64,000 nt of DNA from Candidatus Schekmanbacteria bacterium (GTDB lineage: Bacteria > Schekmanbacteria > GWA2-38-11 > J061), in NCBI GenBank assembly GCA_016219965.1, contig JACRJM010000015.1, positions 31,857-95,856 of the forward strand, in the 5' to 3' direction. The translations under genes and the position numbers were made by a program. The notes beneath the pieces were generated by a model. It was not told the origin of the DNA and did no database searches. It was given only the letters and a program-made list of their open reading frames with translations. Position 1 is the stretch's first letter. The number at the start of each line of letters is the position of its first letter. Shown in pieces: positions 6,029 to 55,945 of this stretch.

Positions 6029-7402
6029 TCAGTGTTTTATTTTAAAAATATTAAAATCGCTTATTCGTTGTAAAATAAATTTCAACTGTGAAAGCTTGAA
6101 AAATTTTAGCAACGTCAGCATTTGACGCGGTCTGAAGAAGAAACTTCTAAAGGCTTTTGAAGAAGCATTCTGAAGTGTTTTGCTGCTTAAACCTTCAGGG
6201 ATCCATGTCACATCCTGATAACTTCTATAGGATGAAGGAGAGAGATTAGTACTTGCTCCGAGCTTATGAAAAAGTTCTGATCCTGGGAGAAGATCTAAGA
6301 GAAGAAATTGAGCCCTATCGAGAGGAATCTTTTTTGCAAATCTTATAGTTTCGTTTATAGTTTCTTCAGTTTCTCCTGGAAGTCCAAAAATGAAGAACCC
6401 CTGAGTTATAATACCTGCTTTCTTGGATTCTCTTATAGCATATTCAATAATTTCCAAATTTGTTTTTTTATGAATATTATCCAGGATTCTCTGATTCCCG
6501 GATTCAATTCCGAATGCTAAATAATAGCATCCGCTTTCTTTCATAAGTGATAATAATTCAGGCGTAACTGTTTCAACACGAATACCATTAGGGGTAGCCC
6601 AAGATATTTTAAGATTGCGAGCAATAATTTCTTGGCATATTTGTTCTACGTGGCTTTTCTTAAGGGTCAGGTTGTCATCTTCAAAATGAATTTCCTTAAC
6701 TCCGAATTCTTTTACAAGTAACTCTATTTCATCAACTACATTTTTAGGAGATCTGAATCTTATCTTTTGCTTCCATATAAAAGGGCTCGCACAGAATGAA
6801 CATGCAAAAGGGCAACCACGTGATGAAATGATTGGTGCAACTGGAAAGTTTTTTATTAGTCCTCCATGCGGAGCCTTCTCATAAGACTTGGGGTTCATCT
6901 GTTCCCAATCAGGCAATGGGAGGGAATCAATATCTTTTATAAATTCTCGATCTTTTATATTCCCGTTATTAAGTTTGTAAACACCTTTAATATCTCTAGG
7001 AGCTTTAGTTCCTGATGATAGATGATTTGCAAGGTCGAGCATAGATTCTTCTCCCTCGCCGACTACTGCAAAATCAGCTCCGCTTTCTTCCAGAGATTTC
7101 TTTGGTACTGCTGTAACGTGTGGACCACCAATAACGGTAATTATATCTTTTTTTTTACAGCGCCCTATTAAATCACATACTTCAGGATAATAGTCGGTTA
7201 GCACACTGATTCCAACTAATTCACAACCGTATTCCTGGCATATATCTGCAATTTTCTCATTTGAAAGGGCATAGTTTAGTCCATCTAACAATTTTGTTTC
7301 ATTAAATCCATGTTTTTTCAGATATGCTGAAATGTACCCCAATCCCAATGGCGGAGTAATTAAATGAGTGTGATAAGATGGTCTCGCTAAAACTATTTTC
7401 AT
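6029..7402 (-). CDS. B12-binding (class B) radical SAM protein
   Basis: N-terminal cobalamin-binding-like Rossmann region (VIGGPHV, VVGEGEE), then radical SAM Cys triad GCPFACSFC. Shows IW-K-R-RS and ETEET motifs shared with the paralog at 39680-41191. Its start overlaps the upstream oxidoreductase by 4 nt (ATGA). Confidence 0.8.
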   Translation of the reverse strand: MKIVLARPSYHTHLITPPLGLGYISAYLKKHGFNETKLLDGLNYALSNEKIADICQEYGCELVGISVLTDYYPEVCDLIGRCKKKDIITVIGGPHVTAVPKKSLEESGADFAVVGEGEESMLDLANHLSSGTKAPRDIKGVYKLNNGNIKDREFIKDIDSLPLPDWEQMNPKSYEKAPHGGLIKNFPVAPIISSRGCPFACSFCASPFIWKQKIRFRSPKNVVDEIELLVKEFGVKEIHFEDDNLTLKKSHVEQICQEIIARNLKISWATPNGIRVETVTPELLSLMKESGCYYLAFGIESGNQRILDNIHKKTNLEIIEYAIRESKKAGIITQGFFIFGLPGETEETINETIRFAKKIPLDRAQFLLLDLLPGSELFHKLGASTNLSPSSYRSYQDVTWIPEGLSSKTLQNASSKAFRSFFFRPRQMLTLLKFFKLSQLKFILQRISDFNIFKIKH

Positions 7403-34609: not shown

Positions 34610-35449
34610 GTGAGTAATAAATCTAAAAGAGATACATTTTTTTTTATTGTAGTTCTAATTACGTTTCTTCTACTTTACAGTAAAACGATTATTTGGTTAG
34701 GAAGTCGATGGTACAATGATGAGGATTACTCTCACGGACCATTAATTCCACTTGTTTCAGGTTATCTTATATGGATAAAAAGGGACAAACTAAAGCAAAT
34801 AGAACTATCGACAAATATAGTAGGGCTCTATTTGCTGATCGTGTCTCTTTTAATCCATGTCTTCAGTATAAGGGCGGAGGTTAGTTTTACATCAGCGTAT
34901 TCATTAATTTTGTCAACTGCTGGTATAGTCCTTTATTTTTTTGGCCGCAATTTATTTAACGAAGTAATTTTCCCAATCGGTTATCTTGTTTTTATGGTTC
35001 CTTTTTTCCAGTTTATTATTGATCCATTGTCAAATAAACTGAAACTGTTTTCAGCTTACTTGTCAGCAGAAATAATCGATCTTGCAGGTATTCCAGTGTA
35101 TAGGGATGGTGTTATGTTGCATCTTGCTACAGGCTCTCTTGAAGTTGCAAATCCTTGTAGCGGAATAAGATCAATAATATCGCTTTTAGCTCTCGGAACT
35201 ATATTCTCATATTTTTCGACTACTACAATGACGAATAGAATTTTGCTAGTTTGTTCTACAATTCCTCTTGCCGTTGTTGGCAATTTGGCAAGAATAGTTT
35301 TTTCAGGAGTAATGACAAATGCAGGTATAGATGTTACTACTGGATTCATACATACTCTCACTGGTTTAATCGTTTTTGCAGTTGCATTTGCAGGCCTTAT
35401 TGGTGTCAGGAAACTTCTTATATGGAAAAGCGAAATAAAAAATATTTAA
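34610..35449 (+). CDS. xrtA: Exosortase (EpsH; XrtA-type transpeptidase of the PEP-CTERM system)
   Basis: Eight-TM protein with exosortase active-site motifs ANPCSGIRS (Cys), GNLARIVFSG (Arg) and the downstream His region. Followed by EpsI and PrsK/PrsR, opposite PrsT. Confidence 0.8.
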   Translation: MSNKSKRDTFFFIVVLITFLLLYSKTIIWLGSRWYNDEDYSHGPLIPLVSGYLIWIKRDKLKQIELSTNIVGLYLLIVSLLIHVFSIRAEVSFTSAYSLILSTAGIVLYFFGRNLFNEVIFPIGYLVFMVPFFQFIIDPLSNKLKLFSAYLSAEIIDLAGIPVYRDGVMLHLATGSLEVANPCSGIRSIISLLALGTIFSYFSTTTMTNRILLVCSTIPLAVVGNLARIVFSGVMTNAGIDVTTGFIHTLTGLIVFAVAFAGLIGVRKLLIWKSEIKNI

Positions 35450-36075
35450 TAGTTATTGCATGTCTTTCTATTGTGACATGTTATTCATTATTAATATTTA
35501 AACCAAGTGACCGCTCTTTTGTCGCTCAACGCTTAAAAGAATTTCCACGAAACTTTGGCAAATGGGAATTTATAAGAGATGTGGAGATGCAAGAACAAAT
35601 AATAAGCGCACTGGACCCCAGTTCAATAGTTTTTAGAGAATATAGAAATCCTGAAGGCAAAAAAATGTGGCTTTGTATAGTGTACCACCAAAATGATAGA
35701 TGGGGTGCTCATGATCCACAAGTATGTTATAAATCGCAGGGTTGGGATATAGCAAATTATGGTGGCAAGTATGAAACCACTCAGATTCATATAAAAGAAA
35801 CAGATGTTGATATAAACAGATTCTATGTAAGCAAGGGAGGGTTTAAAGAGGTTGTTTACTACTGGTGGTTTGGTTCAAAGAAAAAACAGATGACAACAAG
35901 GTTTCAACAAATGCTTGATCTTGCCATTAATGGAGTTCTTTACGGTTATAACGACAGCGGTTTTATTCGAGTATCGATAAATCTTGAAGAAGGACACGAA
36001 GACGAATGTAAAAAGGCTGGGTATGAATTTGCAAAAGCAGTATCCTCTCTTATAGTAGCCTATCTTCCGGACTAG
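35422..36075 (+). CDS. epsI: EpsI-family exosortase-associated protein
   Basis: Starts at the internal ATG (MEKRNKKY) with an N-terminal TM. The 35251 start in the ORF track would run out of frame through the exosortase. Position immediately 3' of exosortase is typical. Confidence 0.6.
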   Translation: MEKRNKKYLIVIACLSIVTCYSLLIFKPSDRSFVAQRLKEFPRNFGKWEFIRDVEMQEQIISALDPSSIVFREYRNPEGKKMWLCIVYHQNDRWGAHDPQVCYKSQGWDIANYGGKYETTQIHIKETDVDINRFYVSKGGFKEVVYYWWFGSKKKQMTTRFQQMLDLAINGVLYGYNDSGFIRVSINLEEGHEDECKKAGYEFAKAVSSLIVAYLPD

Positions 36076-36077: not shown

Positions 36078-38201
36078 ATGGTAGGACTTATTTTAGCACC
36101 ATCAGCGCTGTGTTTCATTCTTCTGATTCCTCTTAGCTTCTATGTTTTAAGCAAGAATCCCAAGGAACTTCCTAACATCTCTTTTGCAATTGCCACCGGG
36201 ACTTTGGCATTAGTTGAGTTAGGGAAGTTTATGTTTCTCCTTAATCCAGTGTCTTGGACAGCAGATATATGGCTTAAATGTTTTTGGGGTGGATTAGTAT
36301 CAATGCCGGTATCGTGGCTTTTCTTCAGCCTCATATTTGCAAGAGAAGGCTATAATCCAATAATTACGAAATGGCGTTGGGGCCTGACAGGGGTTTCACT
36401 CGCATCAGCGGCAGCAATTCTCGTTGTTACTAAAGATGATAAAGCTATTTATCCTGCTGTTGTCGGCAAAACTCCGGGAGTAGTTCTTGGGGCTGACAGC
36501 TATTTTATGTGTATATATCTTATGCTCGCATTTGTCCTCGTAATAGTTAATTTTGAAAACACATTAAGAAACGCATCGGGCCCAATTAAAAGACAGATAA
36601 AATATGCAATAGTTGGAATAATTGGAGTCTTCTCATTCTTTATATATATTTTGACTGAAGCACTTTTATATTCTTTTATCGCAGTTAAACTTTTATTTGC
36701 CGGTTCATGCATCACTATAATTTTAACACTGGTCCTATATTTTTCTATTATAAGATACCGTATGCTCGATGTTCACGTCTTCATTTCCAGATATGTTATT
36801 TACAGGTCAGTTTCAATCCTTGCAGTTGGCATCTATTTATTATTAACTGGAACATTGTTACAGCTTACTGAGGTTCTTGGAGGTAGTTTTTACCAATATT
36901 TTAAACCGGTAATGGTTTTTGTCGCAGTAGCTTTGTTCGCAATATTGTTACTATCAGACAGAGTGAGGCGAAAACTTCAAATATTTATTAGTAAGAATTT
37001 TTTTGCCAATAAATATGATTACCGTTACGTCTGGTCTCAATTTACAGAAAAACTTGGCTACACGGTAAAGATTAATGAAATGTTGCCGGAAATTGCCGAG
37101 ATGATTGCCGGAATTATGTGGGTTGAATCAGTTTCAATCTGGTTGTATGATGAGGAAGTTAAGGGATACAAGGTGGCAGAATATTTTAATCTCATGGAGA
37201 TGAAAGATGTAATAATAAAAAGTGACGATTTTATTGTTAAAGCACTTGAAGAACAGGAAATATTAGATCTTACAAAGCTTACGGAAAGTTCGGATGTTCA
37301 AGATTTAGACAAGGCTATATTTATGTCTAACACCTTAAATGCACGTGTAGTGGTCTCAATGAAAAATCAAGAGGGGTTAATGGGTTTTATTGCAGTTGGT
37401 AGCGAAATAACTGGAGAACATTTTAATTATGAAGATTATGAACTGCTTCAGACATTAGCAAGGCAATCGGCAAACCTAATTCAAAATGCTATGCTTTCTG
37501 AAAGATTAATGATTTCACAGCAAATGGAATCTGTTACCAGAGTTGCATCATTTATAATTCATGATCTCAAGAATCTTATATCAACACTGGATATGCTTTT
37601 AGATAATAGCAGGGAATATATTGATAATCCTGAATTTCAGAAAGACTTGATAATCACACTCGAAAATACTGTAAAAAAGATGCGCAGGATGATGGAGAGA
37701 GTTTCTACAAAACCGCAGGAGACAAATTTTATCTTTGAACCTGTCAACTTAATTAATATAATTAGAAATAGCATCGAGGAGGTCCGTCTGGAGAATAATC
37801 CTAAAGTTAAATTGATGAAATCCTTTGACGAAAATGACTCAGTTGTAACTATGGGAGATGAAAAATCATTGAATAAAGTTTTTACAAATATCTTGATAAA
37901 TGCAATGCAGGCTTTGCCTTCAATTGGAGGAGTTATAGATATTAGCGTAAACAAAAATAACGATAGAATTAATGTTTCTATTTCAGATAATGGGAAAGGA
38001 ATAACACAAGACTTCATAAAAAAAAGTCTTTTTAAACCATTTCAGACTACTAAAGAGGGAGGTTTAGGTATAGGATTGTACCAATGCAAAACTATTATTG
38101 GAGCACATGAAAAGGCAACATTAGATGTCGAAAGCGAAAAGGGGAAGGGAGCAAAATTTATAATAAGCTTTCCTATCAGTGAAAGAGGTGCAGTAAATTG
38201 A
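36078..38201 (+). CDS. prsK: PEP-CTERM system sensor histidine kinase PrsK (polytopic N-terminus, GAF, HisKA, HATPase)
   Basis: About 700 aa with ~8 N-terminal TM helices, a GAF-like middle, a His box (FIIHDLKNL) and a HATPase_c G-box (DNGKGI...GGLGIGL). Adjacent to exosortase and PrsR. Confidence 0.75.
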   Translation: MVGLILAPSALCFILLIPLSFYVLSKNPKELPNISFAIATGTLALVELGKFMFLLNPVSWTADIWLKCFWGGLVSMPVSWLFFSLIFAREGYNPIITKWRWGLTGVSLASAAAILVVTKDDKAIYPAVVGKTPGVVLGADSYFMCIYLMLAFVLVIVNFENTLRNASGPIKRQIKYAIVGIIGVFSFFIYILTEALLYSFIAVKLLFAGSCITIILTLVLYFSIIRYRMLDVHVFISRYVIYRSVSILAVGIYLLLTGTLLQLTEVLGGSFYQYFKPVMVFVAVALFAILLLSDRVRRKLQIFISKNFFANKYDYRYVWSQFTEKLGYTVKINEMLPEIAEMIAGIMWVESVSIWLYDEEVKGYKVAEYFNLMEMKDVIIKSDDFIVKALEEQEILDLTKLTESSDVQDLDKAIFMSNTLNARVVVSMKNQEGLMGFIAVGSEITGEHFNYEDYELLQTLARQSANLIQNAMLSERLMISQQMESVTRVASFIIHDLKNLISTLDMLLDNSREYIDNPEFQKDLIITLENTVKKMRRMMERVSTKPQETNFIFEPVNLINIIRNSIEEVRLENNPKVKLMKSFDENDSVVTMGDEKSLNKVFTNILINAMQALPSIGGVIDISVNKNNDRINVSISDNGKGITQDFIKKSLFKPFQTTKEGGLGIGLYQCKTIIGAHEKATLDVESEKGKGAKFIISFPISERGAVN

Positions 38202-39559
38202 CAAAAAAACAAAAACTCTTAATTGTTGAAGATGACCGTGAAGCATTAAGGCAGTTAGATTGGGCATTTTCTAGGTTTTATAAAGTTATAAAGACTGATA
38301 CTGAGGAACAGGCCATTGAATTATTTATTGAACAACAGCCGCGTGTAGTATTGCTCGATCTTTCTCTTAGCGATGACCAGGAAGAACAGGAAGGGTTTAG
38401 AATATTGGAAAAAGTGTTAAGCCTTGATCCTCTTACTAAGGTTATTGTTGTTACAGGACATGATGAGGACAAAGCAGCTATCAAAGCAATAAGACTTGGT
38501 GCATGGGATTATTATATTAAACCTGTAAAGCCGTCAGAATTAAGAGCTATGGTAGATAGGGCTTACCATATAAGTGACATTGAGGAGAAAAGCTTAACCA
38601 ATGCAAGAAAAGAGTTTGACGAGAACAAATATGGTGAGATTGTAGGAGGATGTCCTGAAATTAAAGAAGTAATGCAGTTTATTGATAATGTCGCTGGAAC
38701 TGAGACAACAGTATTAATCCTTGGTGAAAGTGGCACCGGGAAAGAACTAGTGGCTCGTGCTATCCATAATTCCAGCAAGAGAAAAGAAAAGCCTTTCATT
38801 GTAATAAACTGTGGTGCAATCCCTGAAAACCTGCTGGAAAGTGAGCTTTTTGGACACGAGAAAGGTTCTTTTACAGGAGCTTACGCACAAAAAAAAGGAA
38901 AATTGGAGTTGGCGGAAGAAGGAACTATATTCCTTGATGAAATAGGTGAAATTCCACCAATACTTCAAGTAAAATTGCTCAGGTTCCTTCAGGAGAAAGA
39001 GTTTGAACGTGTTGGCGGCACAAAGCAGATTAAAGTTAATGCGAGGATAATAGTTGCAACTAACAGAGATTTGAAGACTGATATGAATGAAGGTAAATTC
39101 AGAGAAGACCTTTATTATCGTTTGAATGTTGTTTCAGTAACATTGCCGCCTTTAAGAGAGAGGGGAAATGATGTAATACTGATTGCAAGATTTTTGGTAG
39201 ACAAATATTGTGCTGAAAACAATATTCCTCCAAAATCTCTGAGTAGAGAAGCAGAGCTGGCAATTAGAAAATATCAGTGGCCAGGGAATATAAGGGAATT
39301 GGAAAATCTCACAAAAAGAGCAATAATCATGTCTCCAGGGAGTTTGCTTTTCCCCTCTGACCTGGGATTAAAAGAAACGGCAGAGTCAAAATGCCTCTTA
39401 ACACTAAAAGAAGCAAAAGAAGAAATAGAGAGGAAATGTCTGCTTGATGCTCTTGAAAAAAATAATGGATTTGTAAGCAGAGCTGCTAAAGATTTAGGTG
39501 TAAGTAGAGGAACATTTTACGATTTATTGAAAAAACATGGGATTGAAATTGAAGAATAA
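38198..39559 (+). CDS. prsR: PEP-CTERM-box sigma-54-dependent response regulator PrsR
   Basis: REC domain, AAA+ sigma-54 activator domain (GESGTGKE, GSFTGA, Walker B FLDEIG) and a C-terminal HTH. Its start overlaps prsK by 4 nt. Confidence 0.8.
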   Translation: MTKKQKLLIVEDDREALRQLDWAFSRFYKVIKTDTEEQAIELFIEQQPRVVLLDLSLSDDQEEQEGFRILEKVLSLDPLTKVIVVTGHDEDKAAIKAIRLGAWDYYIKPVKPSELRAMVDRAYHISDIEEKSLTNARKEFDENKYGEIVGGCPEIKEVMQFIDNVAGTETTVLILGESGTGKELVARAIHNSSKRKEKPFIVINCGAIPENLLESELFGHEKGSFTGAYAQKKGKLELAEEGTIFLDEIGEIPPILQVKLLRFLQEKEFERVGGTKQIKVNARIIVATNRDLKTDMNEGKFREDLYYRLNVVSVTLPPLRERGNDVILIARFLVDKYCAENNIPPKSLSREAELAIRKYQWPGNIRELENLTKRAIIMSPGSLLFPSDLGLKETAESKCLLTLKEAKEEIERKCLLDALEKNNGFVSRAAKDLGVSRGTFYDLLKKHGIEIEE

Positions 39560-39679
39560 ATTCTTGGAATTTAGATTCTTCATATAAAACATACTGAGTA
39601 CTAATTGTGTTTATAGTTCATATCCCAGTCAATAGTTTTAGTTTAATTTGTCACCTGTAGCTAATAATAAAAAAAGTCG

Positions 39680-41191
39680 ATGGGAAAAAACAATAAAAAA
39701 ATTTTACTTATTACTCCCCCTTATTACAGATTATATAACAGTAGATATTCGCTCAATCGTTATCCCCTGTCATTAGGTTATTTGTCAGGAGCAATATTGG
39801 ATAATACTTCATGGGAAGTTATGACTTACAATGCTGATTTCTGTCAAGATAATGAGCAGCTGCAAGTTAGTTATTTAGCAGGAGAAGGATTTAATAATTA
39901 TCTAAAAAACATCAATGATCTGACAAGCAGCATATGGGATGAAGTTAAAGAAACGATAAGGGATTTTAATCCTTCTGTAATAGGATTATCCTGTATGACT
40001 CAGAATTTTAAGGGAGCATACAACATTGCCAAAATTGCTAAAGAACTAAATGAGGATATTCTTGTTATAGTTGGCGGTCCACATGCAAACATGTTTTTAT
40101 CGGAAGTCTTAGACTATCCTTACATTGATATATGTGCTGTCGGAGAGGGAGAGGAAACTATTGTCGAATTGTTAAATACTATTGACGGTAACAATGATTT
40201 TAATACTGTTACGGGAATTATATATAGAATAGATGGGAAGGTTGTCGTGAATCAACCGAGAGAACTTCTTAAAGATTTAGATTCTCTTTCTTTCCCTCAT
40301 AAATATGCTCATAAGGTTTTAAAAAATTATGATAGATATCCAGTCGAAGCTTTCCACAACATTTTTGCTATAAGAGGGTGTCCTTTTAACTGTATTTTTT
40401 GTGGTTCTATTTATATTTGGGGCAGAAAACCAAGATATCGTTCTATAGACAATGTAATTGAAGAGATAAGAAACCTGAGCAGAATGGGGGTTAAAAGAAT
40501 AAGCTTTGAAGATGATTCGTTCGGGATTAAAAAGTCTTATATCTTGGAGTTAGCTGAAAAAATTAATGTAAATTGCCCCAGTGTAAAATGGTCCTGCGAA
40601 ATGCACGTAAAAACCGTTACTGAAGAGATTGTGTCTGCTATGAGCGATTCTGGTTGTTGCAAAATTACATTGGGTGTTGAATCCGGGAACAACGATATTT
40701 TAAAGAAGATACGTAAAAAAAATACAATAGAAGATTGCATCCATGCGGGCAAAATTATATCGAAGTTCAATATTGAATTAGGTGCATTCTTTATGGTTGG
40801 GTTTCCATGGGAGACAGAAGAAACCCTGAAAGATACAATTAGGGCAATGAAGAAACTTAATGCTGATTATTCAGTGTATAGTATTTTTACACCATATAAA
40901 GGGTCTGAAGCTTTCAGTATCTGCAAAGATATGGGGTTGATAAGCGATGATTATGATTTTTCCATATATAATCACCAGAGTCCATTAAACTGTTTCTGTA
41001 AAAATATTTCCAAAGAAAGATTTAGAAAAATATGTTCTAAAATGGAAAGGATAAGCGATAAAAGAGGTATCTATTATCAATTAATCAAACCGTTAACATC
41101 TTTAAAAACCATCAGAAAAATTAAAAATAAAGGGCTGAAAGGAGTCATTAAAAAAGTCAGAAACTTAGCTTTAGCATCAACTAAAAAGTAA
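39680..41191 (+). CDS. B12-binding (class B) radical SAM protein, paralog of 6029-7402
   Basis: B12-binding-like N-domain (VGGPHAN, VGEGEE) and the rSAM triad GCPFNCIFC. IW-RK-RYRS, FEDD and ETEET blocks align with the paralog. Confidence 0.8.
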   Translation: MGKNNKKILLITPPYYRLYNSRYSLNRYPLSLGYLSGAILDNTSWEVMTYNADFCQDNEQLQVSYLAGEGFNNYLKNINDLTSSIWDEVKETIRDFNPSVIGLSCMTQNFKGAYNIAKIAKELNEDILVIVGGPHANMFLSEVLDYPYIDICAVGEGEETIVELLNTIDGNNDFNTVTGIIYRIDGKVVVNQPRELLKDLDSLSFPHKYAHKVLKNYDRYPVEAFHNIFAIRGCPFNCIFCGSIYIWGRKPRYRSIDNVIEEIRNLSRMGVKRISFEDDSFGIKKSYILELAEKINVNCPSVKWSCEMHVKTVTEEIVSAMSDSGCCKITLGVESGNNDILKKIRKKNTIEDCIHAGKIISKFNIELGAFFMVGFPWETEETLKDTIRAMKKLNADYSVYSIFTPYKGSEAFSICKDMGLISDDYDFSIYNHQSPLNCFCKNISKERFRKICSKMERISDKRGIYYQLIKPLTSLKTIRKIKNKGLKGVIKKVRNLALASTKK

Positions 41192-41255
41192 ACCCCTCTC
41201 GAAAACAAAATTGTTTTTTATCTCGTATTTTCTTCTATTTTAGAAATAAAGCCTT

Positions 41256-44075
41256 TTACATTCCGTTGAGCAGTTTTCTTACTTCATCTAATTCAGGAAA
41301 ATTTGTTGACAGACTAAGGGCTTTTTGAAATTCAGATTTCGCCCTGCTTTTATCTCCTTCACGCATATAAGCTAAGCCCATATGATAATGAATTGTTGGG
41401 TCATCGGGAACAAGTTTTAAGGCTTCCTGGAACTTTTCTTTGGATTCTTTAATCATTCCTTTTTTAAAGTATACCCAGCCTAATGTATCAATGACCCCTC
41501 CGTTATTTGGAGCCAGTTTTACGGCTTTTTGAGCCATACTTACTGCTTCATTCATATTCTTTCCAGTTTCTGCATATACCCATGCAAGGTTATTTTGAGC
41601 AAGGGGAATATCCGGAGATATTTTTATTGCTTCGTTGTAGTTTAAAATGGACTTGTCAAAATTTTTCTGGGTTTGATAAATTGATCCAAGCTTAGTATAT
41701 ATATCAGCTCGTATTAATTGCAGTTCCTTATCACTGTTTTTAGGAATTAACTCTAACGCTTTATTGTAATGATTAATAGCTTCATCTCTGTTGCTGCGTT
41801 TCATAGATAGTTCTGCAAGATTGATTGCAGGGAGTGGTGATTTCGGAAATTGAGCTGAAGCTTTTTCTAGGATTCCCATGGCATTAGCATAATCCCCTTT
41901 TTCCGAGTAAATTTTGCTTTGAAGTGTATAAGGTAACAAAGAATTTATTTTAGGACCTTGAACTGCTTTTGCAATCTGAAGGGCTTCGTCGAAACGTTTG
42001 AGCGATGTCAATAATGATATTTTCTGAACTTTTATTTCTACTGAATCCGGGGATTTTGTAAGGGCTTTATCTATCTGCTCAAGCGCCTGATTAAAGTCCT
42101 TCTTAACAGCATAAAGAGAAGCCAGTCTAAGATAACCAAGGGGTTTATCTGGCTGTAAGGATATTATCTTTTGATATGTTTGTTCTGCTTCATCCATTTT
42201 TTTATTTTTTACATAGAATGATGCTAAATAGTCATAACCAGCAATAGCCTTCTCATCACTTTTTATCATTCTTTCAGCAGTTTCTTTAAGCTTATCATCC
42301 TGATTTGACTTTGCATATATACTTGCCAGATCAGCAAGCAATACATTATTGGCGGCAGTCTGCTTGATTCCGTTTTCAAGTATATCTATTGCCTGCTTGG
42401 TGTTCTCCTTCTGGAGGCTCAGTGCTGCAAGTCTCTTTATTAAACCTATATTAGCAGGTGATTTAGCAAGTGCTTTACTAAGAATGTTTTCAGCTTTTCC
42501 TATGTCCTGTTGTTTTATATAGATTGTAGACAAGTTAATGTAAGATGAAATAACATCAGGCGATTTCCCAATAGCTGTCTGATAAATATCTATTGCTTTA
42601 GCAGGCTCGTTTTTTCCAAAATAGGCAGAACCCAATAGATTCAACAAAGTAGGATTATCTTTAGAGCGTTTTAATCCTTCTTGGCACTCTGATATTGCCT
42701 TATCATACTGTTGTGATTGTAAATAATAAGCAATAATTGTAATTCTTGCATCTAGAAAATTCGGATTTACCTCAAGTGCTTTTTCAAATTCACTAATAGC
42801 ATTATCATTTTTCCCGGTTGATGCATAAAACTTTCCAAGGTTCAAATAAGATGGAGCAAATTCCGGATTGATTTCTATGGCTTTAGATAATTCCTTCTCA
42901 GCTTTGTCAAATTGTTTTGTCTGGGCATATGCCTGGGCAAGAGTAGCGTAAGCCAGAGGATTATCAGGTGCAGACTGTGCTATTTTCTGGAATTCCTGGA
43001 GGGCTTCATCATTCCATCCCTGTTTCAGATAAAGCGTACCTAAATAAAGATTGGCCAAAGTAAAAGACGGTTTTATTCTCAATACTGTCTTTAATTCAGT
43101 TATTGCCTGCTGCATGTTGCCCTTTTCCGCTTGCGCCAAAGCGAAATAAAATCTTGCTTCAGCGAATCCGGGTCCTTTTTTTACAGATTGTTCTAATTCT
43201 GAAAACGCAGCATCAATTTTGCCCTGTCTAAGACGGGCAACTCCCTTAAGGTAATTTCCTCCTGCAAGCTTAAAGTCTATTTTGTTGAGGGTTTCCCCCT
43301 CCTCGATCGCTGCATCAAATTTTTTCTGGTCTAAATAAAGTGAACCTAGAAGAAAACGTGTGTCATAGTGATTAGGATTAATCTGTAAGGCCTTTTTAAA
43401 AGTTTGTTCGGCGTTTGTATAATCTTTTTTCTGAATATAGAAGTTTGCTAAGCTTAATATTCCCTCAAAGTCCTTTGGGGCTAATTCCAGAGATTTTTTG
43501 TAGAAGGCTTCTGCTTCATCAAATTTCTTTTCGCGCATATATAGATGCCCCCTGCTTATGTAAACCTTAGAAAAGGCAGGGTCCATTTGAATGACCTGCT
43601 TGAAATATGAATCTGCTTTATCGAAATCATTTTTTGCTGTCCAGGCCATTCCTATAGCATTTAAACACTGTTTGTTATTAGGATCTTTTTTTATTAAACT
43701 TTCCAGACTTTTCAGTGCATCGTCCGCTTTCCCTCTGCTCAAATTTATAAGTCCCATTTGCAACAGAAGATCATTGTTTTCAAACTTAAGTCCATTTGCT
43801 TTTTCAAACTGTTCGAGTGCTTTATCGTACTCCCGTCTCCCCATGTACGATTTTCCGAGATAATACAATGTCTCTCCAGACTGGGGGTCAATTTTTAATG
43901 CATTCTTAAGTTCAATTATGGCTCCGTTATATTCTTCTTTTTCAATTAAGCTCTTGGCTTTGATTATATGTTTTTCAATTTTTTCTTTTGGACTTTGGCA
44001 GGAAGTTAGTATAAATAGTGTTAGCAGTATATTCACAGAAAGAAATGAGAAACGGAATATGGCTGATTTTTTCAT
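41256..44075 (-). CDS. prsT: PEP-CTERM system TPR-repeat lipoprotein PrsT
   Basis: 939 aa with a lipoprotein signal (LTSC lipobox) and more than 20 TPR repeats. Size and neighbourhood match PrsT. Confidence 0.75.
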   Translation of the reverse strand: MKKSAIFRFSFLSVNILLTLFILTSCQSPKEKIEKHIIKAKSLIEKEEYNGAIIELKNALKIDPQSGETLYYLGKSYMGRREYDKALEQFEKANGLKFENNDLLLQMGLINLSRGKADDALKSLESLIKKDPNNKQCLNAIGMAWTAKNDFDKADSYFKQVIQMDPAFSKVYISRGHLYMREKKFDEAEAFYKKSLELAPKDFEGILSLANFYIQKKDYTNAEQTFKKALQINPNHYDTRFLLGSLYLDQKKFDAAIEEGETLNKIDFKLAGGNYLKGVARLRQGKIDAAFSELEQSVKKGPGFAEARFYFALAQAEKGNMQQAITELKTVLRIKPSFTLANLYLGTLYLKQGWNDEALQEFQKIAQSAPDNPLAYATLAQAYAQTKQFDKAEKELSKAIEINPEFAPSYLNLGKFYASTGKNDNAISEFEKALEVNPNFLDARITIIAYYLQSQQYDKAISECQEGLKRSKDNPTLLNLLGSAYFGKNEPAKAIDIYQTAIGKSPDVISSYINLSTIYIKQQDIGKAENILSKALAKSPANIGLIKRLAALSLQKENTKQAIDILENGIKQTAANNVLLADLASIYAKSNQDDKLKETAERMIKSDEKAIAGYDYLASFYVKNKKMDEAEQTYQKIISLQPDKPLGYLRLASLYAVKKDFNQALEQIDKALTKSPDSVEIKVQKISLLTSLKRFDEALQIAKAVQGPKINSLLPYTLQSKIYSEKGDYANAMGILEKASAQFPKSPLPAINLAELSMKRSNRDEAINHYNKALELIPKNSDKELQLIRADIYTKLGSIYQTQKNFDKSILNYNEAIKISPDIPLAQNNLAWVYAETGKNMNEAVSMAQKAVKLAPNNGGVIDTLGWVYFKKGMIKESKEKFQEALKLVPDDPTIHYHMGLAYMREGDKSRAKSEFQKALSLSTNFPELDEVRKLLNGM

Positions 44076-44255: not shown

Positions 44256-44287
44256 GTTAGCGAGCGAATATAATTAAATGACAAAAT
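44256..44287 (+). repeat. Copy B of the 32-nt repeated element, overlapping the start codon of the histidine kinase gene
   Basis: GTTAGCGAGCGAAT ataattaa ATGACAAAAT; the ATG at 44278 is the annotated start of the kinase. See copy A. Confidence 0.5.
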
Positions 44288-45522
44288 CCATAGATATGAA
44301 TAATCCCCCAACTTCCGCTACGAGCGTTTCAAATGGATCATCTGAAAAAAATAATCTATTTTATGAAAAAGAGTTTGTAAGAAGAATTTTCACCATTCTT
44401 TTCCTGCTCGTCGGAGTAACTACAATACATTATACTACTCCGTTAGCTTTTACACAGTATCATTATGTTTTTGCCAGAATGTACTATATCCCAATAATAC
44501 TTGGCTCCTTCTGGTATGGTCTGAAAGGAGGGTTCATAGTATCATTTTGTTCGGCAGTACTTTATGGCCCTCATATTTTCTTCCAATGGCGGACAGCCGG
44601 CATGGGCACATTAAACGAATACCTTGAGATAGCGATTTATATGGCTGTAGGTATTGTTACAGGTTTTATGGCTGATCAGGAGAAAGTTCTGAGATTTAAG
44701 TATCAGAAGGCTGCTGATGACCTTGAGAAATCCTATGAAAAACTTAAGGAGCAGGCAAGACAGCTCCTTGAAAAAGAACAGCAACTTATACGAGCAGACA
44801 GACTTGCCACTATGGGGGAGCTTGCTGCAAGTTTAACCCATGAGGTTAGAAATCCTCTCGGCTCAATATTGGGGAGTGCGGAGATACTTAAGGATGACTA
44901 TAAACCGGGTGACGTGAAATATGAGTTTCTTGAAATAATGATAAAAGAAGCCAACAGGTTAGACAGAGTAATTAATAACTTTTTGTCATTTGCACGGTCT
45001 AACAAACCTGATATCAAGGAATTTGATATTAATTCCTCGATCCTTGACATAAAGGAACTTGTGGAAATTGGAGCTGCTAAAAAAGGTATAACCATCAACA
45101 CAAACCTTGATGGCAAAATAGGGAAAATCAATGCCGACGAAGAGCAGATAAAACAAGCTATTTTAAATGTTCTTTTAAACTCCATCCAGGCCATGGATAA
45201 AAATGGGAGAATCACTATTTCCACGTTCCAAGAAAGCAGCGGGACCTCTGCAAGAGATTTATCTGAACAGGAAATTACAGTCGGGAAAATGCCTGCTGTG
45301 CAATGTGTCAATATATCGTTTACCGATAATGGCTCAGGTATAATTCCGGAAAACATGGAAAAAATCTTCAATCCTTTTTTTACTACAAGAGAGAACGGCA
45401 CTGGATTGGGACTTTCCATAACACGAAGAATAATAGAAAATCATAGAGGTTCTATTCATGTGCAGTCAAGAGTGAATGAGGGTACTACTTTTGTTATTAA
45501 ACTTCCTCTCAGGGAATTTTGA
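44278..45522 (+). CDS. Sensor histidine kinase (four-TM N-terminus, HisKA + HATPase; NtrB/AtoS-like)
   Basis: H-box LTHEVRNPLGSI and ATPase boxes (NLDGKIGK..., DNGSGI, GTGLGLSI). The true start may be the Met at 44296. Confidence 0.75.
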   Translation: MTKSIDMNNPPTSATSVSNGSSEKNNLFYEKEFVRRIFTILFLLVGVTTIHYTTPLAFTQYHYVFARMYYIPIILGSFWYGLKGGFIVSFCSAVLYGPHIFFQWRTAGMGTLNEYLEIAIYMAVGIVTGFMADQEKVLRFKYQKAADDLEKSYEKLKEQARQLLEKEQQLIRADRLATMGELAASLTHEVRNPLGSILGSAEILKDDYKPGDVKYEFLEIMIKEANRLDRVINNFLSFARSNKPDIKEFDINSSILDIKELVEIGAAKKGITINTNLDGKIGKINADEEQIKQAILNVLLNSIQAMDKNGRITISTFQESSGTSARDLSEQEITVGKMPAVQCVNISFTDNGSGIIPENMEKIFNPFFTTRENGTGLGLSITRRIIENHRGSIHVQSRVNEGTTFVIKLPLREF

Positions 45523-46889
45523 AAATGGATAATTCTGACATAAAGATATTGTTGATTGATGATGACGACAGTCTGAGGAGGGTTATAGAACATAATCTTT
45601 GCGAAGAAGGATATAAAGTTATTTCAGCTTCCGGAGGCAGTGCCGGAATAAAAATCCTGATGGAGAGCGAGTTTGACATAGTAATTACTGATTTGAAGAT
45701 GCCTGACATTGACGGCATGGAAGTTCTCGGGACTGTTAAATCCCATAATAAGGATATACCGGTTATTATGATAACTGCATTTGGCACCATAGAACAGGCA
45801 GTCGCTGCATTAAAATCCGGAGCTTTCGATTATCTTACTAAACCTTTTAACCGCGACGAACTTAAAATAACTGTAAAAAAGGCACTTGAACTTAGAAGCC
45901 TGCGCGGTGAGAATTTAAGGCTGAAGGCTGAGCTTTCAGGAAAATTCAGTTTTGATTCGCTTATCTATGGAAGCCCTGTTATGAACGATATAGTTGAACT
46001 GCTCCGTAAGGTGTCTTATTCAGATTCAACTGTAATGCTTCTCGGGGAGAGTGGGACAGGAAAAGAACTTATAGCAAAAGCCATTCACTACAACAGCCCG
46101 AGAAACAAGGGGCCATTTGTGATAGTAAACTGCGCTGCTATACCTGATGAACTTTTGGAAAGCGAGCTTTTCGGACATTCTAAAGGTGCCTTTACCGGAG
46201 CTTACAGCGAAAAAAAAGGAAAGTTTGAATATGCAGATTCAGGGACAATTTTTCTCGATGAAATTGGGGATCTGAAACCTTCCCTGCAGGCAAAGCTGCT
46301 TCGTGTATTGCAGGAAAAAAAAATAGACAAGGTCGGCAGCTCCGTACAGGTTGATGTTGATGTGAGGATAATTTCTGCGACTAACAGGGATTTAAAAAAA
46401 ATGATTTCAGATAGTTTGTTCCGGGAGGATCTGTTCTACCGTCTCAGCGTAATTCCGGTAAGGATTCCGCCTTTGCGTGAAAGAAGGGACGATATCCCTC
46501 TCTTGCTGGACTATTTTATTAAGAAAAACAGCAAACAAAGAAAGCTTGTGGTAACTTCGGAAGCCCTTGCAATACTAACTAATTACAGCTGGAGAGGGAA
46601 TGTAAGAGAGTTAGAAAATCTCATTGAAAGGCTTACTGTCATTAAAAGTGATTCCACTATAATACCAGCGGATCTGCCCGAAGAAATGACTTCATGTTCA
46701 TCTGTTGCAGGAGGTGTTATTTGTGCTTTACCTGAAGAAGGACTTTCTCTCGATGAACTGGAGCGGGATATTATTTTAAAAGCCCTTGAAAAAAATGAAT
46801 GGAATCAGTCAAAGGCAGCGAAATATTTGGATATGACCAGGCCTACGCTTATATACCGTATGGAAAAATATAATATTAAAAAACCTTAA
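45519..46889 (+). CDS. Sigma-54-dependent response regulator (NtrC family: REC-AAA+-HTH)
   Basis: REC (DLKMPDIDG), GESGTGKE, GAFTGA, ESELFGH and a C-terminal Fis-type HTH. Overlaps the kinase stop by 4 nt. Confidence 0.85.
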   Translation: MKMDNSDIKILLIDDDDSLRRVIEHNLCEEGYKVISASGGSAGIKILMESEFDIVITDLKMPDIDGMEVLGTVKSHNKDIPVIMITAFGTIEQAVAALKSGAFDYLTKPFNRDELKITVKKALELRSLRGENLRLKAELSGKFSFDSLIYGSPVMNDIVELLRKVSYSDSTVMLLGESGTGKELIAKAIHYNSPRNKGPFVIVNCAAIPDELLESELFGHSKGAFTGAYSEKKGKFEYADSGTIFLDEIGDLKPSLQAKLLRVLQEKKIDKVGSSVQVDVDVRIISATNRDLKKMISDSLFREDLFYRLSVIPVRIPPLRERRDDIPLLLDYFIKKNSKQRKLVVTSEALAILTNYSWRGNVRELENLIERLTVIKSDSTIIPADLPEEMTSCSSVAGGVICALPEEGLSLDELERDIILKALEKNEWNQSKAAKYLDMTRPTLIYRMEKYNIKKP

Positions 46890-47478
46890 AGTTTTTTACC
46901 TGTTTGAAAGTTTTTCTATGGATTTCGCAGGGACCAATCTCCATTATTTTCATGATATGTTCTTTTGTAGGATAGCCTTTATGCCTGTCAAAGCCATACT
47001 GCGGGTATAAGGTATGCATCTCCATCATGAACTTGTCCCTTGTCACTTTTGCAAGGATAGAAGCAGCCGCTATAGAATAGCTCTGTGCATCTCCCTTTAT
47101 TATAGTTTTCTGAGGTATTGAAGAATCTATTGCAACTATACCGTCTATTAAAAGGTAATCAGGTATCTGGTTTAAACCTTTAACCGCTTTTTCCATGGCA
47201 AGCTTTGAAGCCTGCAAAATATTTATTTCATCTATTATTTTTTCATCAACTTCTGAAATAGAATAGGAAAGAGCTGTTCCAATGATCTTGTTAAAAAGAT
47301 AATCTCTTTTTGAAGAAGAAAGTTTTTTTGAATCGTTAAGACCTTCTATGCGATGATCCGCAGGAAGTATAACGGCTGCTGCATGCACCGGACCGGCAAG
47401 CGGACCTCTACCGGCTTCATCTATTCCGGCAATAAATCTAAAGCCCTTGCAGAACCCTTCTTTTTCGAACAGGTCCAT
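46876..47478 (-). CDS. rnhB: Ribonuclease HII
   Basis: GIDEAGRGPLAGPV catalytic motif and ~200 aa length. Confidence 0.85.
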   Translation of the reverse strand: MDLFEKEGFCKGFRFIAGIDEAGRGPLAGPVHAAAVILPADHRIEGLNDSKKLSSSKRDYLFNKIIGTALSYSISEVDEKIIDEINILQASKLAMEKAVKGLNQIPDYLLIDGIVAIDSSIPQKTIIKGDAQSYSIAAASILAKVTRDKFMMEMHTLYPQYGFDRHKGYPTKEHIMKIMEIGPCEIHRKTFKQVKNFKVF

Positions 47479-47495
47479 TAAGGTATCAGGTTATA

Positions 47496-47840
47496 TTATT
47501 TCTGCTCTTGAACCTTGGCTGCTTTGCCAAATTTACTGCGAAGATAATAGAGTTTTGCCCGCTTTACGACACCTTTTTTGGAGATCGTGATTTTTTGCAG
47601 AAGCGGTGAAAAAACCGGGAATATTCTTTCTACACCGATACCGTTTGATATCTTTCTGACGGTAATAGTTGACCTGGGACCCTTGTTCTTTATGGCAATT
47701 ATAGTTCCTTCGAATACCTGTATCCTCTCCTTGTCACCTTCAAGGATTTTAAAGTGGACCTTTACTGTATCGCCAGGTGTATACTGCGGATAATCTTTAG
47801 AATATTTTTCACCTGTAAACTGATCAATCGTTTCAAACAT
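47496..47840 (-). CDS. rplS: 50S ribosomal protein L19
   Basis: 114 aa, conserved bL19 sequence (GDTVKVHFKI.EG.KERIQ.FEG..I, KRAKLYYLR). Confidence 0.9.
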   Translation of the reverse strand: MFETIDQFTGEKYSKDYPQYTPGDTVKVHFKILEGDKERIQVFEGTIIAIKNKGPRSTITVRKISNGIGVERIFPVFSPLLQKITISKKGVVKRAKLYYLRSKFGKAAKVQEQK

Positions 47841-48011
47841 GATTTAAGTCTCCTGAAAAACTGAAAAACATATGTAATCTAACGCCAGATGTTTGTCAAA
47901 TAAATTATTATTACTTTTTCAGTATTATTTAAAAAGTGACAACAAAAAAAAATTAATGTATTTTCTTACTTTATTCAATAAATTGTAGATGAATAGCAAA
48001 GCGAGGTACTC

Positions 48012-50849
48012 ATGAAATACAAAAAAATATTCTATATGTTTATTTTGATGCTGATTGCTATCAGTGCATGGACGTTCGAAGCCGGAGCAGAAATATTCTA
48101 TGTTTCCAAGACAGGAGATAACAGCAATGATGGGTCTGCCATTGCTCCTTTTCTTACAGTACAGAAAGCTATTGATTCGCTGACTGCGGATGGTGATGAG
48201 GTATGGATATCGCCTGGTGACTATAATGAAGCAGTTATATCGGGTAATACTTCAACTGATAGATTACGGAATATTAAGGTAAAAGGAACTGCTGATGGAG
48301 TAATTATAACTGCACCGGCGACTAAATCTGCATTCAAATTAAATTATGCTGATAACTGGGTTTTACAAAATATTAAGTTAGTTGGTAATGGGGAAACCAG
48401 TAATGTAATAGTGGATGTGATGCAATCTCCAGGTGCACGCATTGAAAATTGTACGGTAAGCGGTGGAAGCACCAGCAATATTTGTTATAGGGCTGTTTAT
48501 ATTCTCAGTTCGCCAAACTTCATAGTTAAAAACTGCACGATTGATGCATACTGCGAAAATAGTATTTTCAGTTCGGAATCCAATAATTTACTGATTAAAG
48601 GGAATGATGTTAGTAATGCAGACTCTATTACAATAGGTTTTGATAAAGGATGCGATTATACGACGTGTGAAGAGAATTATATTCATGACCGGATTACACC
48701 GGGGCAGAATGAGAAAGTTATCATTCAGTGCAGAGATAATGTCGGTTCAATACTAAGGAGGAATTTGATTGTAGAATTTAGCACTTCTTTCCTTAATGCA
48801 ATACTGGTAAGAGGACCTTCAATCCCGGCAGAGGATATCACAGTTGAAAATAATACATTGATAGGTCCAGGAGCACAGACAGGTATAGCATTTGCTGCTA
48901 ACTCTTTATCATCAATCTGCAGGAATAATATTGTCTCCGGTTTTTATTATGCGGTAAGGACTCTTTATCCGTCATCTGAATTACCTAGCCCGGAGGTTGA
49001 GCTCAATTTTAATGATTTTTATGACTGCACGACCTCTGTTAGCAATACCGTTAATTTATTTAATATAGGAAGTTCAAATATATCGAGTGATCCCTTATTT
49101 GCCGACACAGCGGAATACCGGCTAAGTGAAGGAAGTCCCTGTATTGATACTGGAGATCCGGCTTCATTGGTACCGACTGGTGGAGGGACAACTGTTGATA
49201 TGGGCCGATGGGAATACAGGGATTCTATTTATGAGAATAATCAATCCAGCATTTATCTTTCATCAATCTTGATTGATTTTGGAACAGTTGAAGATGGACA
49301 GACTAAATCCATTGATTTGACATTAAGCAATGAGGGGAATGCTGATCTCTCTGTATCATCAATTGGTATAAGCGGAAGTTCAGCCTTTACTTTGAATTCT
49401 TCACCTGCGGTGCCTTTTACCATTACTGCTGAAGCCTCAATTACTCTGCAGGTTGATTATAAGCCGATAGAAGCCCTATCTGATACAGCAACGATAATTA
49501 TTACCAGCAACGATCCTGATCAGGGGACAGCATCTGTTTTACTCACCGGAACCGGCACTCCAAGCGTTGTACCTCATATAAGTGCAGATAAAGAATCTTT
49601 AGACTTTAAAACAGTAATTGTAGGTTCATCAAGAACTTTATCCGTTACTATAAGTAATACGGGAATTGATGATCTCGTAGTCTCAAATTTACTGATTTCA
49701 GGAAGTTCTCTATTTGACCTTAACGAACTTGTCCCGGAAACACCATTTACGGTTTCAATCGGTTCATCGGTGATAATACCGGTTGATTTTGTCCCTTATA
49801 GTGCTGAACCAAGTGCAGGAACTCTCACTATTGAGAGTGATGACCCCGACCAGCCTGAGCTTGATGTATCGCTTAGCGCTGAGGGTTATGATTTAACAGT
49901 AAAGCCCAAGATCAATGTCAGCACTGAATCTTTGGACTTCGATAAAGTAGTTTATGGTTTGACAAGTACATTGACAGTAATTGCAAGCAACACCGGAAAT
50001 ACCGCATTGTCCATATCAAATATTTCGATTACAGGGAGTTCAGACTTTTCTTTGGCTGAACTAGATATGACATTTCCCTATTCAGTGCCTTTTGGTTCAT
50101 CCCTTAACATACCGGTAATTTATAATCCTTCAGGTATTACTCCAACCAGTGCTACCATTACTATTAACAGCGATGATGAAGACGAACCGCAGGTTTCTGT
50201 ACTGCTGAATGGAGGAGGATATGATGAAGAGAATTCTCCGATAGATCTTGGTATAGAATCGTTTACAGTAGACAAACGAATAGGTTTAACAAGCACAAAA
50301 CCAATAGAAATTGGAATAACAGTCAAAAATAATGGAGTTATAAAACGAGGAAGCAGTGCTAATGTTGTCGGATTCCAGAATGATTTACAAGTTTATGACG
50401 AGACTATAGATATTTCAGGTGATAACAGTGCTTCTTATTGGTTTCCATCTTATACCCCCGAGCTTAAAGGTCAAATTCTCTGGCTTGCCAGCATAAAAGA
50501 CAGCAGCGATGAATTTAAACAGGAAACAGCGATGACTTATGTTTTTTCCGGAGATGTGTCTCCGGTATGGGTGACCCCAAACAAGACAAGCATTGCAGCA
50601 GATGAAAAAATGACATTTAAAGCATTTATAACAGGAAAGAAGATAAAGAAAAAAAATCTTGCATGGTATGTGAATAATATTCCCGGTGGAAACAGCACTG
50701 TGGGAACGATAAAGCCTTCAAAGAACAGAAAGAGCGGTGTTTATACAGCACCTTCTGTACTGCCGTATCCATCTACAGTTGTAATAACATTTGTAAATAA
50801 GAAAAAAACATCGCAATACGGAAGTGCTGAGGTAACAATTGAAGAGTAG
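48012..50849 (+). CDS. Large secreted protein: N-terminal right-handed beta-helix (paralog of 30303-31526), three tandem ~105-aa choice-of-anchor-D-like Ig-type repeats, then a C-terminal Ig-like region
   Basis: Signal peptide. Residues ~30-400 align with the EPS-locus beta-helix protein. Three repeats share the pattern L/IDFG.V..G......T.SN.G...L.VS.I.I.GS..F.L.....PF...........V.Y.P......A..TI.SDDPDQ. No PEP-CTERM or other sorting tail at the C-terminus. Confidence 0.6.
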   Translation: MKYKKIFYMFILMLIAISAWTFEAGAEIFYVSKTGDNSNDGSAIAPFLTVQKAIDSLTADGDEVWISPGDYNEAVISGNTSTDRLRNIKVKGTADGVIITAPATKSAFKLNYADNWVLQNIKLVGNGETSNVIVDVMQSPGARIENCTVSGGSTSNICYRAVYILSSPNFIVKNCTIDAYCENSIFSSESNNLLIKGNDVSNADSITIGFDKGCDYTTCEENYIHDRITPGQNEKVIIQCRDNVGSILRRNLIVEFSTSFLNAILVRGPSIPAEDITVENNTLIGPGAQTGIAFAANSLSSICRNNIVSGFYYAVRTLYPSSELPSPEVELNFNDFYDCTTSVSNTVNLFNIGSSNISSDPLFADTAEYRLSEGSPCIDTGDPASLVPTGGGTTVDMGRWEYRDSIYENNQSSIYLSSILIDFGTVEDGQTKSIDLTLSNEGNADLSVSSIGISGSSAFTLNSSPAVPFTITAEASITLQVDYKPIEALSDTATIIITSNDPDQGTASVLLTGTGTPSVVPHISADKESLDFKTVIVGSSRTLSVTISNTGIDDLVVSNLLISGSSLFDLNELVPETPFTVSIGSSVIIPVDFVPYSAEPSAGTLTIESDDPDQPELDVSLSAEGYDLTVKPKINVSTESLDFDKVVYGLTSTLTVIASNTGNTALSISNISITGSSDFSLAELDMTFPYSVPFGSSLNIPVIYNPSGITPTSATITINSDDEDEPQVSVLLNGGGYDEENSPIDLGIESFTVDKRIGLTSTKPIEIGITVKNNGVIKRGSSANVVGFQNDLQVYDETIDISGDNSASYWFPSYTPELKGQILWLASIKDSSDEFKQETAMTYVFSGDVSPVWVTPNKTSIAADEKMTFKAFITGKKIKKKNLAWYVNNIPGGNSTVGTIKPSKNRKSGVYTAPSVLPYPSTVVITFVNKKKTSQYGSAEVTIEE

Positions 50850-50919
50850 CGCATTAAAACTTCTCAAAAAAAGGGAAGGGTTGCATCTTCAGTCAGAGAC
50901 GATGTTAAAAAATAGTTAA

Positions 50920-52228: not shown

Positions 52229-52231
52229 GGT

Positions 52232-52971: not shown

Positions 52972-53002
52972 TGGCTGATACGTGACTACTGCTTAAGTAC
53001 AG

Positions 53003-53266: not shown

Positions 53267-53342
53267 CTTCTTTTTCTCCTTTGTAAAAACAATCTATTCC
53301 ACCAGTAACAACAGGTGCGTAATATTTTTTGCTGAATGTAGC

Positions 53343-53372: not shown

Positions 53373-53399
53373 GCGAAAGGGTTGAATGAACCTACTTAT

Positions 53400-55940: not shown

Positions 55941-55945
55941 TGATA

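Follow-up and report, generated by a model that had tools for sequence, protein, structure and literature searches.

In this work, we analysed a 64-kb stretch of DNA (hereafter the window; 64,000 nucleotides of contig JACRJM010000015.1) from a metagenome-assembled genome of Candidatus Schekmanbacteria, in which a gene for a cobalamin (B12)-binding and radical S-adenosylmethionine (SAM) protein is located at 39680..41191 on the plus strand, between the exosortase-associated regulatory genes prsR and prsT. We consider it probable (roughly 0.6) that the product is a class B radical-SAM (rSAM) enzyme of an uncharacterised family, encoded by an accessory tailoring gene of the surrounding exopolysaccharide (EPS) locus, and that it acts on an EPS sugar, probably by C-methylation. 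The position of the gene between two exosortase regulators is peculiar to this genome, and the gene is not a component of the Prs/Xrt system. A preliminary description of this DNA had reported a B12-rSAM gene between prsR and prsT in an exosortase EPS locus, and the open reading frame (ORF), the Pfam domains and the NCBIfam neighbours all agree with that.

The ORF runs from an ATG to a stop codon and encodes 503 amino acids (aa). Its N-terminal part contains a Rossmann-type cobalamin-binding domain (PF02310, residues 80-164, 39917..40171 on the plus strand), which scores 67.1 bits against the Pfam cutoff of 32.1, and it is followed by a radical-SAM core (PF04055, residues 231-388, 40370..40843, plus strand) with 79.4 bits against 29.5. 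The CxxxCxxC motif for the [4Fe-4S] cluster is intact (C234/C238/C241, nt 40379-40402, within RGCPFNCIFCGS), and the three cysteines are invariant across a 24-sequence alignment of the family (A1). The VGEGEE block, residues 153-158, falls inside the B12-binding domain, where G155 is nearly invariant and E156, G157 and E158 are invariant. The mean column identity of A1 is 70%, with more than 100 invariant positions, all of which the window protein keeps because it is one of the aligned rows. Both features by which the class B superfamily is defined, an rSAM core with CxxxCxxC and an N-terminal B12 Rossmann domain, are therefore present. Judged from its sequence, the protein is a real and intact cobalamin-type radical-SAM protein; the enzyme is probably functional, and cobalamin binding is predicted.

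The structural comparison points to the same class. An AlphaFold2 model built from A1 has a mean predicted local distance difference test score (pLDDT) of 86.2 and a predicted template modelling score (pTM) of 0.86, and its predicted fold is the class B B12-rSAM architecture. The top Foldseek matches of the model are TsrM, MgmA, AprD4, CysS, TokK and OxsB, with template modelling (TM) scores of 0.57-0.66. For TokK, CysS, MgmA and TsrM, the E values range from 3e-21 to 4e-18 and the superposition covers about 440-490 columns. Methyltransferases make up four of the six closest structural families. A sequence search of the Protein Data Bank (PDB) with phmmer gave AprD4 (6FD2, E = 6e-25), MgmA/QCMT (9CCB, 1e-22), TokK (3e-18) and CysS (2e-10), the entry 9CCB being identified as MgmA/QCMT in the literature (PMC12931638, PMC11796369).

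The protein belongs to a large and widespread uncharacterised family that is spread across phyla, mostly in anaerobic bacteria and in archaea. More than 1200 homologs were found at E <= 1e-20; the best of them is metagenomic and 68% identical, and the identities then level off at 50-58% over a long series of proteins about 499 aa in length. The relatives were collected as 136 stretches, with one genome per species of the Genome Taxonomy Database (GTDB), and the best 78 loci were used for neighbourhood counts. These 78 loci come from Lentisphaeria, Omnitrophota, Brocadiaceae, Pelotomaculum, Nitrospirota, Planctomycetota, Chloroflexota, Bacteroidota and Desulfobacterota among the bacteria, and from Woesearchaeota, Heimdallarchaeota, Sifarchaeum and Methanomicrobiales among the archaea. 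Homologs at 50-58% identity are supplied by Omnitrophota, Brocadiaceae, Pelotomaculum, Nitrospirota, Chloroflexota, Planctomycetota, Woesearchaeota, Heimdallarchaeota and Methanomicrobiales, and one carrier that is in culture, Pelotomaculum propionicicum MGP (L007), has an ortholog with 54% identity. Besides the motifs common to the class, A1 contains a conserved C-terminal block specific to the family, YSIFTPY ... HQSPxNCFC. The database names attached to the homologs (BchE, MiaB, YgiQ) are misleading, and the label 'anaerobic Mg-protoporphyrin IX monomethyl ester cyclase' derives from the BchE and HpnJ models.

The genomic surroundings of the family are those of surface-glycan synthesis. By clustering the neighbouring ORFs of 79 loci de novo and annotating the clusters with Pfam, we found as recurrent neighbours glycosyltransferases of family GT4 (28), nucleoside diphosphate (NDP)-sugar epimerases/dehydratases (14) and GT2 glycosyltransferases (13), together with DegT aminotransferases, Wzy_C proteins, SAM-dependent methyltransferases, a GHMP kinase, short-chain dehydrogenases/reductases and heparinase II/III-like proteins, mostly co-directional with the family rSAM gene. 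Homologs of the GT4 proteins of the window were found by tblastn in 21-31 family loci. The three closest relatives with genomic context lie in a Wzx/GT2/CapK/acetyltransferase/GT4/AsnB locus, in a GT4/GT4/epimerase locus, and in a Wzm-Wzt/Wzy/GT8/GT2/GT4 locus that holds three B12-rSAM genes and one rSAM gene with a SPASM domain. Thus, the family shows what we took as the operational mark of glycan-locus tailoring genes, namely recurrent co-directional neighbours that are glycosyltransferases, NDP-sugar enzymes, Wzx/Wzy or ATP-binding cassette (ABC) exporters. Several B12-rSAM genes in one glycan locus, like the two that the preliminary description had pointed out in this EPS locus, are not unusual: four copies occur in L006, three in L162, and two each in L016, L036, L052, L072 and L080. 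In L006 (10001-20130) and L162 (2733-18855, the latter also with a SPASM rSAM gene), distinct B12-rSAM genes stand amid glycosyltransferase, Wzy and ABC-exporter genes, and such arrays suggest a multi-step radical tailoring of glycans in anaerobes.

On the other hand, the family is not tied to the exosortase system. When 33 proteins of the window were compared with the family loci by tblastn, an exosortase homolog was found in 1 of the 78 loci, and neither a PrsR homolog nor a full-length PrsK homolog in any of them. The single case is L076 of a member of the Korobacteraceae (Acidobacteriota), where at 1021-9861 a family member with 45% identity and an exosortase gene point away from each other and a PrsT-like gene with tetratricopeptide repeats (TPR) is nearby. 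In the reverse test, prsR was present in 29, prsK in 17 and exosortase in 8 of 80 PrsT loci taken from metagenomes, and a homolog of either window rSAM (E <= 1e-8) in none of the 80. These counts do not support the idea that the rSAM gene belongs to a regulatory core or is an XrtA feature, and homologs do not recur beside prsK, prsR or xrtA. The preliminary description had named the absence of homologs from exosortase loci in other genomes as what would refute its reading, and apart from the single case of L076 this absence is what the counts show. The arrangement itself is also looser than the 'otherwise conserved' neighbourhood of that description: the genes are all present, although prsT is inverted. 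In about 20 of the 29 PrsT loci with prsR, the genes prsK, prsR and prsT follow one another in tandem on the same strand, prsR and prsT being at most about 250 nt apart, and the window departs from this order twice, by the inversion of prsT and by the position of the rSAM gene at the prsR-prsT junction. A tandem of prsK and prsR was reported for 12 of 13 genomes, a tandem with prsT for 4 of 13, and prs regulators near glycosyltransferases for 12 of 13 (Haft et al., 2006, PMC1569441).

We hypothesize that this family provides accessory tailoring functions in surface-glycan loci (EPS, capsular polysaccharide, O-antigen, S-layer glycan), and that the window gene, which stands at the edge of the XrtA-linked EPS locus, would belong to the variable tailoring genes of that locus. 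In the proposed mechanism, the [4Fe-4S] cluster would cleave SAM reductively to a 5'-deoxyadenosyl radical, to which an unactivated carbon in a nucleotide-, lipid- or polymer-linked sugar residue would lose a hydrogen. Methylcobalamin would then donate a methyl group, and a C-methylated sugar would result in the EPS repeat unit. Several points weigh against this reading. No NCBIfam equivalog cutoff is reached by the protein, including those of BchE, HpnJ, PhpK, ApyD, Sden_1168, MgmA, BzaD, HpnR, KedN5, AprD4 and ArsL; its best scores are 176.4 bits on BchE (TIGR02026, cutoff 481) and 155.9 on HpnJ (TIGR03471, 577.6), followed by 140.9 on PhpK (600), 127.8 on MgmA (360) and 126.5 on TIGR04072, a B12/rSAM model of lipid biosynthesis (360). 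No single conserved partner gene that would point to a substrate was found among the family neighbourhoods, and of the 78 loci counted 54 are at least 10 kb long, many of the sampled loci being short. Searches of the literature found neither an experimentally established function for any family member nor a link of B12-rSAM proteins to exosortase, EPS, capsule, O-antigen or polysaccharide loci. Moreover, we infer methylation from the enzyme class only, and the class B enzymes OxsB and BchE perform non-methylating chemistry, as does the diol-dehydratase AprD4, which is the top PDB sequence match.

The main rival is a non-methylating radical reaction on the sugar, such as an AprD4-like 1,2-diol dehydration/deoxygenation, an epimerisation or an OxsB-like ring rearrangement, which would give a deoxy or rearranged EPS sugar and which we regard as rather unlikely. 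It draws on AprD4, an enzyme that modifies paromamine at its sugar moiety and is, with OxsB, among the top fold matches, and on the highest NCBIfam score, which belongs to the oxidative cyclase BchE; furthermore, SAM-dependent methyltransferases already adjoin family members in several loci. However, the AprD4 model matches only the rSAM core (residues 223-426), whereas the true B12 enzymes BchE, HpnJ, PhpK and MgmA also align over the N-terminal domain, and this domain passes the Pfam B12-binding cutoff, while AprD4 binds no cobalamin (PMC12931638). The prevalence of methyltransferases among the closest structural families likewise argues for C-methylation, which remains part of our preferred reading. 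A modification of lipids, either of the polyprenyl carrier or of a membrane lipid, in the manner of HpnJ, HpnR or the ladderane-associated B12-rSAM proteins, appears very improbable. HpnJ and TIGR04072 are among the top NCBIfam matches and the Brocadiaceae, which make ladderanes, carry family members, but both scores are far under their cutoffs, and the family is surrounded by genes for glycosyltransferases and NDP-sugar enzymes instead of those of hopanoid or fatty-acid metabolism.

It was also proposed that the radical modification is directed either at the polymer or at a PEP-CTERM protein. The polymer is the most reasonable target. As to the protein, a dedicated component of the PEP-CTERM/exosortase system that methylates PEP-CTERM proteins, similarly to MgmA on methyl-coenzyme M reductase or PoyC-type enzymes on ribosomally synthesized and post-translationally modified peptides (RiPPs), under the control of PrsK/PrsR, is highly improbable and is largely refuted by the neighbourhood counts. 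The position directly after prsR and beside prsT, the acidobacterial locus L076, and the presence of MgmA, a protein glutamine C-methyltransferase (PMC11796369), among the closest solved structures would fit such a role. On the other side stand, besides the counts from both directions, the absence of a conserved small-peptide neighbour from the family neighbourhoods and of a sigma-54 promoter from the upstream spacer, and the occurrence of the family in archaea and Pelotomaculum. To our knowledge, exosortase systems are not expected in either. A simple motif scan found no PEP-CTERM-like tail in any ORF of at least 50 aa in the window. A PEP-CTERM protein as substrate is thus unlikely because of the taxonomic range, the counts, the lack of such a tail in the window and the fact that no peptide gene recurs beside the family. 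As no tail was found among the window ORFs, the genes for the putative exosortase substrates are likely to lie elsewhere in the genome. The 945-aa choice-of-anchor-D/beta-helix protein at 48012-50849 bears no PEP-CTERM-like tail either.

The second B12-rSAM gene of the window encodes 457 aa at 6029..7402 on the minus strand, with Pfam B12-binding and Radical_SAM domains, and passes no NCBIfam cutoff. The two proteins had been called clear paralogs on the basis of five shared blocks. The blocks VGEGEE, GCPF-C-FC, IW-K-R-RS-NV-EI, FEDD and ETEET all align, and the proteins are homologous (31% identity over 417 columns in BLASTP, E = 1e-59), but these blocks are motifs common to the B12-rSAM class as a whole. 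By comparing the identities, the first rSAM is far closer to its best metagenomic homolog (68%) and to proteins of other phyla and of archaea (50-58%) than to the second one, so the two represent old and separate subfamilies, and not recent paralogs. The second gene is part of a minus-strand operon (272-8847) that looks like a separate tailoring module. The other products of this operon are a sulfatase-superfamily protein (272-2116), a polytopic membrane protein of the PMT_2-like kind (3925-5991), an oxidoreductase resembling flavin adenine dinucleotide (FAD)-dependent amine oxidases (7399-8847) and an unassigned protein of 571 aa. A search for a functional partner specific to this second rSAM gave none, the extra copies in the multi-rSAM loci being no closer to it than 34-37%.

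The sulfatase-superfamily proteins at 272-2116 and 27151-29055 bear N-terminal extensions of about 330 aa, and sulfatase homologs with 28-35% identity lie near family members in two archaeal loci (L016 and L048). A maturation of the two sulfatase-family proteins in the manner of anaerobic sulfatase-maturating enzymes (anSME) was rejected, as the rSAM protein carries a B12 domain but lacks a SPASM domain, and only 2 of 81 rSAM-family loci contain a sulfatase homolog.

Within the EPS locus, which takes up window positions 1 to about 44000 (a locus of the 40-kb size class), the genes preceding the rSAM gene on the plus strand encode an exosortase (34610..35449; TIGR02602, 196.4 bits, cutoff 105.55), EpsI (35251..36075; 73.5 bits, NCBIfam cutoff 42.8), the histidine kinase PrsK (36078..38201; TIGR02916, 417.7 bits, cutoff 300) and the sigma-54 response regulator PrsR, its same-strand upstream neighbour (38198..39559; TIGR02915, 544.9 bits, cutoff 502.6). 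The convergent gene prsT for a TPR lipoprotein follows on the minus strand (41256..44075; TIGR02917, 562.5 bits, cutoff 312.2), and the homolog search with PrsT gave no relative exceeding 28% identity. The listed EpsI ORF overlaps the exosortase gene by about 200 nt, and its true start is probably near 35430. On the XrtA-specific model the exosortase reaches 188.7 bits and misses the cutoff of 208, and it matches the fused XrtW/XrtD models better, over their N-terminal halves; all XrtA-system markers other than the exosortase clear their cutoffs. Above the NCBIfam cutoffs are also an XrtA-system export protein (11519-12337), a chain-length determinant (13624-15138), the EpsB_2 priming transferase (16501-17889) and a deacetylase (17900-18817). 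The locus further includes several GT4/GT2 glycosyltransferases, an acetyltransferase, the two sulfatase-superfamily proteins, PMT_2-like membrane proteins and a GHL15 hydrolase. Directly past prsT, a second pair of a histidine kinase and a sigma-54 response regulator is located at 44278-46889, and its regulator is a PrsR-like paralog, with 408 bits against the cutoff of 502.6 of the PrsR model. Exact-sequence look-ups of the rSAM protein, PrsR, PrsT and the downstream histidine kinase gave no record for any of the four, and a Logan contig matches window positions 44591-64000 at 100% identity.

The two spacers of the gene are as the preliminary description had them, with 120 nt after prsR and a weak A/T hairpin before the convergent prsT. 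In the 120-nt spacer (39560..39679, plus strand), the sequence scans found no recognisable signal: there is no terminator, no sigma-54 -24/-12 match, and no Rfam family or B12/SAM riboswitch, the sigma-70-like sites are at chance level, and the RNA structure is no better than that of shuffled sequence (z = +1.38). The stop-to-stop spacer to prsT (41192..41255, 64 nt) contains the 7-bp hairpin at 41201-41218 with a minimum free energy of -5.7 kcal/mol, which was equalled by 49 of 200 shuffles (z = -0.62) and was not called a terminator. The gene is probably expressed by read-through from prsK-prsR, which is plausible, or else from a promoter within the 120-nt spacer that escaped recognition. 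Elsewhere in the window, a perfect sigma-54 match, TGGCACAAATGTTGCT, lies at 9282-9297 (plus strand), 42 nt before a PocR-GAF-GGDEF gene (9339-11324), and a match with one mismatch at 16456-16471 (plus strand), 30 nt before the EpsB_2 priming transferase gene at 16501. Sigma-54 matches across the window are not above chance (26 against 22.6 expected); these two are well placed as candidate PrsR- or RpoN-dependent promoters of EPS operons.

The composition of the gene is that of its surroundings. The EPS genes have a GC content of 27-33%, against 40-45% for the housekeeping genes; the rSAM gene has 32.9%, and its GC fraction at third codon positions (GC3) of 0.288 is like those of prsR (0.283) and prsT (0.301). 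No direct or inverted repeats bracketing the gene were found, in agreement with the earlier remark that mobile-element scars are absent. A recent horizontal insertion was thus rejected, and the equal GC3 together with the lack of flanking repeats indicates that the gene is resident and was not freshly inserted.

The meaning of these results for exosortase biology is small, and the description of the XrtA system needs no change because this gene adds no hidden member to its regulatory core; nor does the locus call for a new description at the system level. The protein is a further member of a known enzyme class, in a very common uncharacterised subfamily. The broader point is a very large conserved B12-rSAM family embedded in the glycan loci of many uncultured anaerobic phyla and of archaea. 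We may tentatively go further, in a proposal that we consider more doubtful than probable: the family of about 499 aa, which has about 50% identity between bacteria and archaea and often occurs in several copies per surface-glycan locus, might modify polysaccharides by an undescribed radical reaction that depends on cobalamin, such as a C-methylation of sugars at the lipid-linked or polymer stage, and might represent a new glycan-tailoring class typical of anaerobes. In this genome the gene would then be expressed as the last one of the prsK-prsR operon and would tie EPS decoration directly to the PEP-CTERM regulatory signal. If the chemistry of the family became known, a recurring part of the diversity of surface polysaccharides in anaerobes would be accounted for, and carbohydrate polymers would join the substrate classes of B12-rSAM enzymology.

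Among the known systems, the XrtA/PEP-CTERM system resembles the present case in that the gene lies within such a locus and adjoins prsK, prsR and prsT; it differs in that the family does not co-occur with it elsewhere and no rSAM component is described, radical SAM being unmentioned in the account of the system (Haft et al., 2006, PMC1569441). BchE and HpnJ are the highest-scoring NCBIfam models, but the protein reaches about a third of their cutoffs, and no bacteriochlorophyll or hopanoid genes are nearby. AprD4 (6FD2), the 1,2-diol dehydratase of apramycin biosynthesis, combines the best PDB sequence match with a comparable fold score and a carbohydrate substrate, but its NCBIfam match has 98.7 bits against a cutoff of 500 and is limited to the rSAM core, and it works without the cobalamin for which the window protein has a domain above the Pfam cutoff. 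The methyltransferases TokK (7KDX/7KDY), CysS (9N1B), MgmA/QCMT (9CCB) and TsrM (6WTE/6WTF) share with it the N-terminal Rossmann B12 domain followed by a partial triosephosphate isomerase (TIM)-barrel rSAM domain with CxxxCxxC, although the identity is only 16-21%. Their substrates are a carbapenem, a cystobactamid, a protein glutamine and tryptophan, respectively, while the present family has its own C-terminal region and is found in glycan loci, not in antibiotic or RiPP clusters. The B12-rSAM C-methyltransferases of the GenK/GenD1/Fom3 type act on sugars or small alcohols and are a precedent for methylating unactivated sugar carbons. They belong to aminoglycoside and fosfomycin natural-product clusters, and it is by their chemistry that they are likened to the enzyme proposed here for an EPS sugar.

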